54,751 bases of DNA, taken from the IMG/VR virus record IMGVR_UViG_2579779067_000001, one strand, 5' to 3'. A program made the position numbers and the translations under genes. How positions within the stretch are numbered: position 1 is the stretch's first letter; the number at the start of each line of letters is the position of its first letter. Positions 38,530-42,525 of this stretch are shown here, one piece after another. The notes beneath the pieces are model-generated. The model made no database searches. It saw nothing but the letters and a program-made list of their open reading frames with translations, and had not been told where the DNA came from. The stretch comes from a virus (Duplodnaviria > Heunggongvirae > Uroviricota > Caudoviricetes).

Positions 38530-38572
38530 AAAACTGTGACACATAAAGCCTCGCAATGGTTTGCAAGGCTTT
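38530..38572. repeat. left copy of 43-bp imperfect direct repeat flanking cargo block
   Basis: AAAACTGTGACACATAAAGCCTCGCAATGGTTTGCAAGGCTTT; 3 mismatches to copy at 42483-42525. Confidence 0.7.
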
Positions 38573-38727
38573 GAACGCTTCTATATTGAGGATGTGACGC
38601 GGTTTCGTTTATTTCCATTCTATATATTGATGTCGATTTTTATGAATATAGAGCATACGGATAAACTGCAGTGTGATTAGAGTCAAAGTAATAGTTGTTG
38701 ACTCTAATCATTGCAAAGTGACTTTAC

Positions 38728-39795
38728 TTAATGAAATTTATCTCGGATGAATTGTTGCGATGGTTTTTCAATAAATATATATGACATATAGCTAATTGCC
38801 ATTAATGTAAGCATGAATAAAATGAATACCTTGGGGCTGTAAAAAAGATCGCGTCCATAGCCAATCTTGTCAGCTAAATAAACAACAATGATTTGCAAAG
38901 GAAAATGTAAAAGATAAGATGAATAACTGATATCGCCCAACCATTCAATTTTTTTTCCAAAATCGTTTCGTATTGCGCTAATTGATACAAGGAAAAAGAT
39001 TATGGAGGTAAATCCGAATAAGATAATTGAGAATATATCTGCTACTTGCAGGGTAAAGATAACTCCCCATGAGATCAATAGAAAAACACAAGCAAAAATA
39101 AAAAATAACTTTGCGCTAATATTTTTTATGGCCGCAATCGTAATTTTATAAGTCAGACCACCAATAAAGAAAGAGAATGCGCCGATCATTATGGGATTGT
39201 TAATTTTGAAAAAGTAGTACGACAATGCAACTATTAAAATTGATATGAATGTTGTTTTTGATGTGAACTTGCATAATATAAAAAATATCATGTACATAAG
39301 TACTTCAATCGACACGGACCATGTCGGGGCGTTGAAGGACCAACCTCGCTCAAATCCCCATGATTGAATCATCAATAAATTCAGAATGGCATGGTAAATG
39401 TCATTCATAGGATAAACAAAAAAATAATTATGACTTTTAAAGAAAATAATTTGTAATATTGCCACGGCAGCAAATGTAAATATATAAAGTGGATATAATC
39501 TACTGACACGGTTAACTATAAAAGTTTTTGCTGAGGTTTTATTGCTGTGTATATTGTCAGCGTATAGATAAAAAAATATGAATCCAGAAATCATAAAAAA
39601 CAATTCGACAGCATATAAACCGTAATGATAAAAGACGGAAAAAAATTCATAAAAAGGTTGGCGGTTTATGATTATGTCAGATGCAGCATTCTTTTTCATA
39701 AAAAAATGTTGCCAATGCCATAACACAACGGAAAGTGCGGCAAATCCTCTCAGAACATCCAGGGTATATATTCTCTTCCCAAAAACATTCGTCAC
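38728..39795 (-). CDS. acyltransferase family 3 membrane protein (O-antigen/LPS O-acetyltransferase-like)
   Basis: 355 aa; multi-TM; N-terminal LDVLRGFAALSVVLWHWQHFF signature; AT-rich; at prophage right end. Confidence 0.8.
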   Translation of the reverse strand: MTNVFGKRIYTLDVLRGFAALSVVLWHWQHFFMKKNAASDIIINRQPFYEFFSVFYHYGLYAVELFFMISGFIFFYLYADNIHSNKTSAKTFIVNRVSRLYPLYIFTFAAVAILQIIFFKSHNYFFVYPMNDIYHAILNLLMIQSWGFERGWSFNAPTWSVSIEVLMYMIFFILCKFTSKTTFISILIVALSYYFFKINNPIMIGAFSFFIGGLTYKITIAAIKNISAKLFFIFACVFLLISWGVIFTLQVADIFSIILFGFTSIIFFLVSISAIRNDFGKKIEWLGDISYSSYLLHFPLQIIVVYLADKIGYGRDLFYSPKVFILFMLTLMAISYMSYIFIEKPSQQFIRDKFH

Positions 39796-40266
39796 AACGA
39801 ACCTCTTTTAATAAAGTCAAGTGATAATGAAAGATAAATATTGTAAACGAAAAAGCACTGGACTGGAACATATATCTCTGCCTATAATTTAACCAGGATA
39901 ATTTTACTAACGCAGTCATAATTCGTTCATGTATACCAGATGAAAGTACATGTTCTATGAAATAGGGTTTTGCCTGGAGTTTGAAGGTTTTTAACGATTA
40001 TACCTGTTTAATCGACTCCCCATGTTTTTTGACATTATCCACCGCACACGATACTGGATGCCAGGCAAACTGATTTGCTGGCATAAAATCACTGAGAATT
40101 TTTTACCAACAATATCTTGCCACATCTTTTCCCGCACAGTTTCGGCAATAGAATCAGCGGGCAGCGGTCATCAATATTCATCAGACATTGATCTGCCGCA
40201 CTATCTGACCGATGTCCTGCTGAGAATACTAATTTCTTTTTTTGCAAGTGCTGTCCAATCATGATT

Positions 40267-40275
40267 GGGGGGGGG
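40267..40275. repeat. homopolymeric G9 tract
   Basis: nine consecutive G between GIY-YIG-like gene and acyltransferase gene. Confidence 0.8.
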
Positions 40276-40345
40276 CGGCGGAGTTGAAACCGCAGGTACG
40301 TTGTATGCAATAACGTGCTGCGGTTTAATCTTATCAATTGAATAC

Positions 40346-41170
40346 TCAAAAATTAGGTGAGTAACGGACCGGGGACATAGCTCCTTTTTTTCTTAATTCA
40401 TCTGGTATTTTTTTCCCAAGATAAAGATTTGCTATTTCAGGTGGGGCTTCTCGACCTTCAAAACCATAGCGAGAACTTTGTGTTGCCTCAAAGTCAGGAT
40501 CCTCGTCCCAGTATTTCATCGTAGGGAAATTTTCACGTGTTGATTTGAGCCATTTATCAGCAATAAAAACCCCTCGAACGATGCCCCTTACAGTGGCAAG
40601 AATGACTTCTGCTTGGCTGGCGCGAGAGACATTAATGCGCCAGCTAAATCGAACCGCATCATAAAGCTCTGAATCCTTTGCACTTCTGTTAACGGAAATC
40701 ATTAATGCTTTATGATGAAATGTTATGGTTTCGGGTTGATATGTTGCTATCAACTCTTTGACATGCGCGGCGCCGAATTCATTGCTGCCAGCACCATTCA
40801 TGATATTCGTTAACCCAGGGTAGGCATCAATAAGTGCTGCTTCAACTTCGTACGCCGTCTTTTCATCAGTCATTCCATGTCGATGGATTACATGGATAAC
40901 TTCAAGTCCCGCTAATCTTATTTCTCTGATTTGCTTTAGCTTGTTGCTCAGTAACTCGTCATCATCAGCCGCTGCCACTTCACCGCGCATATGGGCAAAT
41001 ACGCGGTTACCTTTGCCTTTCCCTACATAGAAGGTGCTTCCGTCCCTAGGATCAATCAATCGGTATACATACCAGCCAAGGTGTTCAATTACTCCAGAAG
41101 GAAACTCAGTAATATCCATTTTGCAATATCTGTGAATTATTTGTGAGACGTATATTAATGAACATTGCAA
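40346..41170 (-). CDS. GIY-YIG-like nuclease domain protein
   Basis: 274-aa track ORF (TTG start; ATG at 41119); [28 protein letters not shown] resembles GIY-YIG core (YhbQ WFLYLIRTADNKLYTGIT...R..H). Confidence 0.55.
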
Positions 41171-41757
41171 GGGCTCACAACCAGTAGCTTTGAGAAAGCC
41201 ATCGGGAAAATGAGGCTAACCCTTTGAATTTACATAGCGCAAAAAGATACCTTTCCTCATAATGTGAGCTAATTTTATGTTTCGTTTGATGATCGGATCG
41301 GTCTCGAAACCCGTAGCCACGTCGTATGCAAGAACGTGCTACGACTGGCTGGTGAACTTCCGATAGTGCGAGTATTGAATGATTTCCAACTGTTATCGAT
41401 TTTGCGTATTTTTTGCATGAGAGGATTTTTACCTCCTCCCACCGATCCTCCATGGCTTTACGCCAGTGTCTCTGGTCTGCTATGTGCCAGGAGCGGACGC
41501 TAACCTGATTGACGGGAAATCATATTAAGTCTGCATAAAAAATTAGAATATCTTTAGTTACTATTACTAATGTGTGTATAACTTATGCCTAATTTATCGC
41601 TCCGGCTGAGGGAATCTTGCCTCCGCTGTCACTTTTAGGCATGATAACGACTATTTTTACAGTGGTTCCGAGTTATACTATCTAACAGATTACTTGAACC
41701 GAGTCCGTTTATCAGTATGGCGTTTTATATGCTCAGAGTTCATCCAAGGAGTGACTT

Positions 41758-42234
41758 TTGAAATTTGAACGAATCTATAAAAATATTACTGGCCTTAGCT
41801 GTCCCATATTCGGGATTCAGTGGAACGCGCCAATAATAGAAGCTGACGAAGCAAAGAAGATCGTCATTTTTCTTGAGGACAAGCGCGTTCTTTTCAATCC
41901 TGTCGACATGGAGGGGGCTAGTCATTGCACTTCGAGTGTTATCAACATTAGATCTGAATTGACTAAAGTCCTACAAGGTTTGCCGAGCGATTCACATTTA
42001 GCGAAACAATTAAGGAAAATGAGAAAAGCATGCCAAGAATTCTGTGACAGCGTTGGCTCCCCTAACTTTATCCAACTTGATCATCCTGTTCAAATATCCA
42101 TACTTGAGCGAGCCCTTTTTAAACTGCGACAAAAGTGTGGTAACTCTCTGGCAGAAATAGCGGTTACCTATGGTCTTGATGTTGATGACGGATTAGCCAT
42201 TATTATCCCTTTTAATAATCCCAGTAACATATAG
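41758..42234 (+). CDS. hypothetical protein
   Basis: 158-aa ORF; TTG start preceded by AAGGAG SD; AT-rich cargo block. Confidence 0.45.
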   Translation: MKFERIYKNITGLSCPIFGIQWNAPIIEADEAKKIVIFLEDKRVLFNPVDMEGASHCTSSVINIRSELTKVLQGLPSDSHLAKQLRKMRKACQEFCDSVGSPNFIQLDHPVQISILERALFKLRQKCGNSLAEIAVTYGLDVDDGLAIIIPFNNPSNI

Positions 42235-42482
42235 CAATGACTATGAATTTGCTTGCTTGATTAATTATCATGCAATCGATAGTTTTGGGGCGGAAGCGGT
42301 TAGCAAATTAGTCATTAGTGAGTCGTTATGTCCGTTCATCGCTCATAACAGACATAAACTTCAGTTATGGCATAAAGGTATGCATGCTGGGTGGGGAAAG
42401 TATGAAGGAAAAGAAGACTGCTGCGCCGTTTGTCGTCACGTTTATCTTCATTGGCTATGCAAGTCGTAATACAAGGTGGGAC

Positions 42483-42525
42483 AAAACTGAGACACATAAG
42501 GCCTCGCAATGGCTTGCAAGGCTTT
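42483..42525. repeat. right copy of 43-bp imperfect direct repeat
   Basis: AAAACTGAGACACATAAGGCCTCGCAATGGCTTGCAAGGCTTT. Confidence 0.7.

Follow-up and report, generated by a model that had tools for sequence, protein, structure and literature searches.

The virus record IMGVR_UViG_2579779067_000001 of IMG/VR (Caudoviricetes; 54,751 nt, hereafter the window) carries a prophage in which two 43-bp direct repeats bracket a cargo block of about 4 kb. Our analysis indicates that the repeated element, which we name T, is probably a bidirectional Rho-independent terminator in form, that its right copy would act as a boundary terminator, and that the pair is a by-product of phage mosaicism. T denotes a unit of about 55 nt with a GC-rich hairpin between A-rich and U-rich flanks. 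Copy 1 (T1) lies behind the tail fibre assembly gene (tfa) and copy 2 (T2) in front of the right attachment site (attR). The homology of the copies, their positions, their hairpins, and their modular distribution are direct observations and are described below. We read the repeats as a common case of phage mosaicism in which no new mobile element is involved, and the repeat itself is already known, in that GenBank annotators have marked a terminator-like element at its place in phages SfII, L, and epsilon34. Showing what T is removes a false lead, that of a mobile island nested within the prophage.

The two copies and their hairpins

The original prediction placed the repeats at 38530 to 38572 and 42483 to 42525, and both are present there, on the plus strand, with 40 of 43 bases identical. 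When up to 3 mismatches are allowed, the 54.7-kb window contains exactly 2 matches, compared with 0.00 expected from 100 dinucleotide shuffles. The similarity is not confined to the 43-bp cores. Without gaps it reaches 72 nt at 79% identity, and with one indel allowed clear homology spans about 62 nt (approximately 38513 to 38575 for T1 and 42466 to 42528 for T2), beyond which weak similarity continues for about 15 bases. The context is also as first described: copy 1 follows tfa, copy 2 precedes attR, and three genes are enclosed. The window contains a prophage at the tRNA gene thrW; the 47-bp 3′ part of thrW is present exactly twice, as the left attachment site (attL; 1400 to 1446) inside thrW and as attR (42604 to 42650, plus strand). 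The core of T1 begins 63 nt past the tfa stop codon, the core of T2 ends 78 nt ahead of attR, and 88 nt separate the end of T2's 32-nt search core from the GCGAAGGTCG... att motif.

Each copy contains the stem-loop that had been noted (38545 to 38572 in T1 and 42498 to 42525 in T2), with z of about −4 as minus-strand RNA. On the plus strand the stem has one C·A mismatch, which a G·U pair replaces on the minus strand, so both copies fold better as minus-strand RNA. In that sense T1 has a stem of 12 bp (AAAGCCUUGCAA/UUGCGAGGCUUU) with AUGUGU after it, at −16 kcal/mol. Across 28 T variants the hairpins range from −9 to −18 kcal/mol in both senses, and their 10-nt tails contain 5 to 6 U. The stem measures 9 to 12 bp, has a 4-nt loop, and is flanked by AAA/UUU.

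The location of T fits the 3′ ends of transcription units. T1 lies at the junction of two convergent genes, tfa (38027 to 38467, plus strand; Caudo_TAP, E = 9.5e−21), which is the last late gene, and an acyltransferase family 3 cargo gene (38728 to 39795, minus strand; Acyl_transf_3, E = 2.2e−24), whose 3′ end points toward T1. T2 follows the DUF6650 gene (41758 to 42234, plus strand) and, in the circular phage, the integrase gene int (1459 to 2622, minus strand; P22/SfII type, 387 aa). Since attP separates T2 from int, only excision and circularization of the phage place T2 downstream of int. We hypothesize that T2 is a canonical boundary terminator, which in the rightward direction would halt cargo transcripts short of antisense entry into att and int. 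Leftward, its targets would be host read-through while the phage is integrated or the int transcript once it is circular. T1, a diverged homologue with truncated flanks, would end the late operon after tfa and, in the leftward direction, would keep acyltransferase transcripts from continuing antisense into the late genes.

Several observations weigh against this reading. The U-tracts are interrupted (UUAUGUGU), and a simple terminator scan flags only T2, on the minus strand. The family has no steady strand preference: P22-type copies are more stable on the plus strand and SfV-type copies, including T1 and T2, on the minus strand. The tract G(A/G)GACAAAAnnG(A/G)GACAC is conserved beyond the needs of a terminator, a pattern that hints at some further function. 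Covariation supports the stem weakly, because double-sided changes are limited to two pairs and the core was in large part set by the search pattern. An extended 18-pair model is 83.7% paired across the variants, compared with 52% or less for slid partners, and a shuffle control of the pair count (83.7% versus 82.9%) is uninformative because the pattern fixed most core columns. In phage lambda, the T homologue is separated from attP by the phage's own tI/sib hairpin, so T cannot simply be equated with the int terminator in all phages. Finally, an AT-rich hairpin of 12 to 13 bp without a U-tract (38677 to 38710, GATTAGAGTCAA...TTGACTCTAATC, z = −4.55) is situated directly past the acyltransferase stop codon. 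Because it is closer to that stop than T1, T1 is perhaps not the primary terminator of the acyltransferase gene and may be redundant there. A scan of 37500 to 43500 against Rfam returned no RNA family, only a chance match to a snoRNA (E = 0.97).

The T family in other phages

T is by no means particular to the window. An exact-pattern scan of IMG/VR recovered at least 120 stretches with T, and our survey of positions comprises 132 occurrences across all fetched loci (given L numbers below). T is present in SfI, SfII, SfIV, SfV, P22, L, epsilon34, phage 21, and lambda, with further, distant homologues at the corresponding place in HK75, mEp213, HK542, and Sf101; the K-12 prophage e14, which we also checked, is without T and without the conserved flanks LF and RF described in the next section. 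T2 together with its att flank is 96 to 98% identical to SfI, SfII (96.5%), SfIV, and SfV. Homologues lie beside attP in P22, ST64T, BTP1, and L (thrW), in epsilon34 (argU), and in phage 21 (icd). The core of T2 is about 80% identical to the P22-type core and shares with it the 88-nt spacing to thrW and the orientation to int. In most of the 132 occurrences a thrW fragment follows 88 nt after T, and in loci in phage form an integrase of the type found in the window lies downstream of T. Other classes account for at least 10 loci, in which the stop codon of an opposite-strand P4-like integrase gene lies 12 to 30 nt before the start of T and no att site intervenes. The genes to the left of T are always cargo in the survey (gtrABC, acyltransferases, and umuD-like genes). 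Thus distributed over lambda, phage 21, P22, SfV-like, and Sf6-like phages and over at least four integrase/att types, T is, judging from its positions, a conserved element at the boundary between cargo and integration modules, whatever the type of integrase. As a mark of this boundary it offers a practical landmark for prophage cargo loci.

In the SfII record the counterpart of T2, which lies between gtrA and attP, is called a putative rho-independent terminator and assigned to the int strand (KC736978, 24720 to 24766), and the annotators of epsilon34 considered T a possible terminator for transcription from int (EU570103, 21499 to 21520). These two annotated terminators and that of phage L (MW013503, 19748 to 19796) are the same element as T2. 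The papers on epsilon34, SfIV, and L give terminators as in silico predictions only, and we found no experimental basis for the SfII, L, and epsilon34 annotations in the records and papers. We infer terminator activity from the form of T, its position, and the calls of these earlier annotators. Unlike the three annotated cases, the window has a second, diverged copy, T1, behind tfa. SfII has a terminator at the position of copy 1, behind its tail fibre assembly gene, and this terminator is unrelated to T.

The original prediction had proposed duplicated terminators as one explanation of the repeats. In essence this explanation is correct. Both copies do belong to one widespread family of terminator-like hairpins, but they are diverged homologues and not a fresh duplication, because T1 is nearer to the thrW-adjacent L038-type variant of other prophages, with which it has two diagnostic bases in common, than to the resident T2. 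The right flank of the T1 type (TTTGAACGCTTC) occurs only in the tfa-T1-acyltransferase context, in 48 Escherichia coli genomes and 10 loci. When we searched 38570 to 38730 for a remnant att site or int gene, only other T1 modules matched. In about 200 E. coli genomes the homology to tfa ends about 35 bp ahead of the stop codon (38431 to 38434 in the window), and the last tfa codons are therefore part of the T1-acyltransferase module.

The swap slot and a second hairpin family

Exchange of cargo among close relatives takes place in a segment that is smaller than the bracketed block. In strains PBS4 and CREC_5, which carry the same thrW prophage, tfa through 41497 and 42330 through attR are conserved. 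The segment 41498 to 42329 alone differs, with a SIR2 protein or a lipase in its place (L005 and L006); in the window this slot (plus strand) holds the DUF6650 gene. The slot is enclosed by a conserved left flank (LF; 195 bp, 41306 to 41500) and a conserved right flank (RF; 207 bp, 42330 to 42536, plus strand), and T2 forms the right end of RF. LF is 82% identical to phage 21 (L002, 2645 to 2818), its part from 41306 to 41414 is widespread in E. coli genomes, and RF is 80 to 100% conserved beside at least 25 different inserts. Phage 21 shows the order LF-insert-RF too, next to its icd att site. In the fetched loci at least 25 distinct inserts of 0.8 to 6.1 kb lie between LF and RF (L002, L005, L006, L013, L017, L020, L026, L041, L043, L045 to L047, L051, L070, L080, L093, L096, L097, L099, L102, L108, L109, L112, L115, and L117). 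The suggestion that the repeats mark a module exchange site holds to the extent that copy 2 lies within the right flank of the real slot and that T is found at mosaic junctions in many phages. It fails for the pair, which delimits no exchange unit, as close relatives swap only 41498 to 42329.

Many of the inserts resemble known defence systems. PADLOC matches include Avs2 (E = 0), PtuA/Septu (1e−136), Ppl (2e−157), dCTP deaminase (5e−127), PD-T7-1 (3e−69), PDC-S15 (7e−99), a PD-T4-6-like kinase, and a ThsA-like SIR2 protein, and about half of the slot proteins tested have no PADLOC match. By its gene content the LF-RF slot is a prophage hotspot for defence and other cargo genes, and its uncharacterised genes are candidates for new defence functions. 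Defence hotspots have been described in P2 and P4 prophages (PMC9122126; bioRxiv 10.1101/2022.05.12.491691). As in those, two conserved flanks enclose many alternative defence systems. The slot described here differs from them in its backbone, which is SfV-like, phage 21-like, or lambdoid, in its position next to attP, and in its flanks, which are non-coding and contain hairpins and are not conserved phage genes. A limited literature search found no description of a thrW prophage hotspot or of the LF-RF slot.

The left flank begins with a member of a second repeat family, which we call H. H1 (40287 to 40323) lies 22 nt past the stop codon of the GIY-YIG nuclease gene (40346 to 41170, minus strand; LEM-3_GIY-YIG), whose product matches the anti-phage defence family PD-T4-3 in PADLOC (E = 2.6e−140), and H2 (41307 to 41343) lies on the other side of this gene. 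The outer stems of H1 and H2 differ by compensatory changes. Of the full H unit, H1 has kept the left flank and H2 the right flank. A complete H unit is found just 3′ of a dinI-like gene in L128 (15254 to 15357), whose homology to the window breaks inside the H2 hairpin. At the position that corresponds to the slot, L128 carries a restriction-modification pair, and H elements, not LF and RF, bound this insert. L007 has a single H (10044 to 10092) and is without exactly the segment from H1 to H2. L128 itself is NZ_CP081704.1, a 43,680-bp circular "plasmid" of strain AH02, also present as NZ_CP081794.1. It constitutes a complete phage that shares the tail and the module of T1, acyltransferase, and PD-T4-3 with the window but has a dusA-type integrase and a restriction-modification cassette. 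Because a similar match is also found on the AH02 chromosome, an excised or episomal active phage is suggested.

The cargo region of the window consists of units in series, each a gene plus a hairpin, and hairpin families recur where the units meet. This arrangement fits the moron picture of phage evolution. The moron model of Hendrix and Juhala and the boundary-sequence idea that Clark et al. put forward for HK620 concern the mosaicism of lambdoid phages. In agreement with them, the cargo genes here are AT-rich and independently oriented and each is followed by a hairpin, and short conserved intergenic families, T and H, recur at module junctions. What differs here is that one genome contains the same terminator family twice, in direct orientation and about 4 kb apart; we regard the two direct T copies as a by-product of mosaicism and not as a feature of the moron model. 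The recurrent junction hairpins provide concrete material for testing moron exchange.

We favour a mosaic origin of two modules for the pair, which is no cassette boundary. A module of late genes and acyltransferase with its own T would have been joined to a thrW att-int module with another T, and the pair would bracket the cargo because the phage is mosaic. The cargo block would then have been neither inserted nor excised as a unit. The order of these recombination events is one that we infer. Homology between T1 and T2 could occasionally mediate recombination, although we observed no product of it.

Alternative explanations and minor features

With direct repeats at the exact ends of a block that is AT-rich and looks foreign, one could think of an attL/attR-like target duplication by a nested cargo island that had entered a single T site of the phage and was excisable by recombination between the repeats. 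The block is indeed AT-rich, as predicted (32 to 44% GC, compared with 55 to 59% in the late genes), and the H1/H2 pair brackets one cargo gene, which is exactly the gene missing from L007. Nevertheless, we consider such an island extremely unlikely. The block encodes the acyltransferase, GIY-YIG PD-T4-3, and DUF6650 proteins and no recombinase, and the copies are only 93% identical, with one indel and with homology that decays at different flanks. The whole region of 4.8 kb is rare, occurring in 9 of 5,426 E. coli genomes, compared with 48 for tfa-T1-acyltransferase. The T1 module accompanies T2 in L005, L006, L013, and L028, but T1 and its cargo also occur apart from T2: L128, which has a dusA-type integrase, contains the T1-acyltransferase-GIY-YIG module without T2, and L007, a different phage at another site, has a degenerate T1 and no T2. 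SfII has T2 without T1. In some relatives, then, the repeats are absent or do not flank the cargo, a finding that the original prediction itself had named as one that would refute it. The predicted empty junction, queried as a chimera of tfa, a single T, and attR, is covered to at least 80% in none of the 5,426 genomes. Because there is no recombinase, the region is rare, T1 occurs without T2, SfII has a terminator of its own at the position of copy 1, no empty site was found, and relatives swap 41498 to 42329 only, we reject the nested island. T could also be mainly a recombination linker, a short sequence held constant in phages with little else in common because homologous or Red/RecET-type recombination at it shuffles cargo and att-int modules, its role as a terminator being secondary. 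Between phage classes the homology begins and ends at the edges of T, the same core is joined on its right to at least 17 different flanks and on its left to several, and RF and LF surround at least 25 different inserts. In addition, a crossover within the H2 hairpin is visible in L128, and nucleotide conservation reaches past the hairpin. However, junctions at the edge of any conserved functional element look alike, and selection on a terminator would be indistinguishable from this. Moreover, the product of T1 × T2 recombination was not observed, and T1's own flanks are fixed in 58 of 58 instances. We regard a mainly linking role as unlikely, though not far-fetched. A more far-reaching version, in which T (with RF) and H (with LF) are dedicated cassette-exchange linkers for the active swapping of defence and conversion genes and T2 is also a sib-like excision-state switch on int, strikes us as improbable. 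The agent in this version might be phage recombinases or a hairpin-targeting nuclease, for example GIY-YIG PD-T4-3, whose gene lies inside the split H unit.

A comparison with lambda bears on whether T2 is a retroregulator of int. Like lambda sib, T2 lies beyond attP from int, so that the two are joined only when the phage is circular, and like tI/sib it overlaps a terminator-like hairpin with a longer potential duplex. In this explanation an extended hairpin of about 18 to 20 bp (ACAUGUAAAGCC...GGCCUUAUGUGU) would serve RNase III as a cleavage site and thereby set off 3′-to-5′ decay of int mRNA. It would act on read-through int RNA of the circular phage and be uncoupled from int in the prophage, as lambda sib is, and in T1 this function would have been lost. 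The lower stem forms only in minus-sense RNA, via G·U pairs, and takes in the U-tract, so that only read-through RNA could form it. An 18-pair minus-sense hairpin is predicted for the T2, P22, and phage 21 types, and T1 is without the lower stem. Pair 21-50 changes from U-A in the SfV type to C-G in the P22 type, and phage 21 restores pair 24-47. Against this, the 3′ arm UGUGUGU pairs promiscuously, which makes the covariation soft, and the outer pairs are unpaired in about a third of cells. In the integrase-adjacent class T is next to int, without the geometry of sib, and the end of the int gene is the partner in the lower stem. Lambda keeps tI/sib (27,536 to 27,589) together with a separate T homologue (27,470 to 27,515) about 25 nt further out, and because it has both elements, T, which shares no sequence homology with sib, is not a homologue of it. 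A literature search on retroregulation or sib in P22 and SfV-type phages found nothing specific. Taken together, we think a retroregulatory T2 quite doubtful. The T homologue of lambda and a homologue of the sequence to the left of T, at 27,400 to 27,515 of NC_001416 (L129), are not annotated in the record.

There is little probability, in our view, that T2 is the 3′ end of a small gene in RF (42402 to 42536, plus strand), which would encode the hydrophobic peptide MKEKKTAAPFVVTFIFIGYASRNTRWDKTETHKASQWLARLYMF and of which T1 would be a truncated pseudogene fragment. The open reading frame (ORF) has a Shine-Dalgarno-like GGGGAA and an ATG or GTG start at the same spacing in the window, phage 21, lambda, and the L038 type, its N-terminal KEKKxAAxF[DV][IV]T[AF]IF is similar in lambda, and the annotators of phage 21 called it a putative membrane protein. 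However, frameshifts make its C terminus differ among lambda, L009, and the window, the ORF is missing beside T in SfII and other classes, and a terminator within the coding region would yield non-stop mRNAs. The window and phage 21 differ by 3 synonymous and 6 non-synonymous codons, and all database entries are "hypothetical," at least 74% identical, and without a Pfam family. With only hypothetical entries, the frameshift in lambda, and no sign of purifying selection, we did not adopt a gene that runs through T2, and a boundary terminator is the reading of T2 that we retain. Counterparts of the small ORF lie at 4045 to 4200 in L002 and at about 27,405 to 27,530 in lambda, and the ORF reads through the T hairpin.

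Two motifs at T2 deserve mention. The hairpin contains TTGC-N6-TTGC, the recognition motif of lambda CII, at 42501 to 42522 on the minus strand; in P22-type copies it is on the plus strand. The annotators of phage 21 and epsilon34 marked this motif in T. A role in CII binding is probably coincidental, in that TTGCAA arms and a 4-nt loop produce the motif and the strands are opposite between T types. In addition, the T2 hairpin has a TGGGAC motif on either side (42473 to 42487 and 42538 to 42552), the two being direct repeats about 65 nt apart. They are also present in P22-type and epsilon34 copies, and the left one is kept where no att site is nearby. These motifs might be arm-type sites of the integrases of the thrW/argU att family. 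As a general explanation we rejected arm-type sites, since GGGACA repeats are kept beside the P4-like integrase without a nearby att site.

At the left end of the window, proA ends at 1254 and is followed by thrW, the gene for tRNA-Thr(CGT), at 1369 to 1444; the excisionase gene is on the minus strand, as is int. Directly past attR, within 42812 to 45645, lies a P4-type integrase gene with Arm-DNA-bind_3, Phage_int_M, and Phage_integrase domains, adjoined by an AT-rich ORF of 531 aa that has no Pfam or PADLOC match. A third att copy was not found in the window. The second integrase and the 531-aa ORF look like the remnant of a tandem island at thrW.

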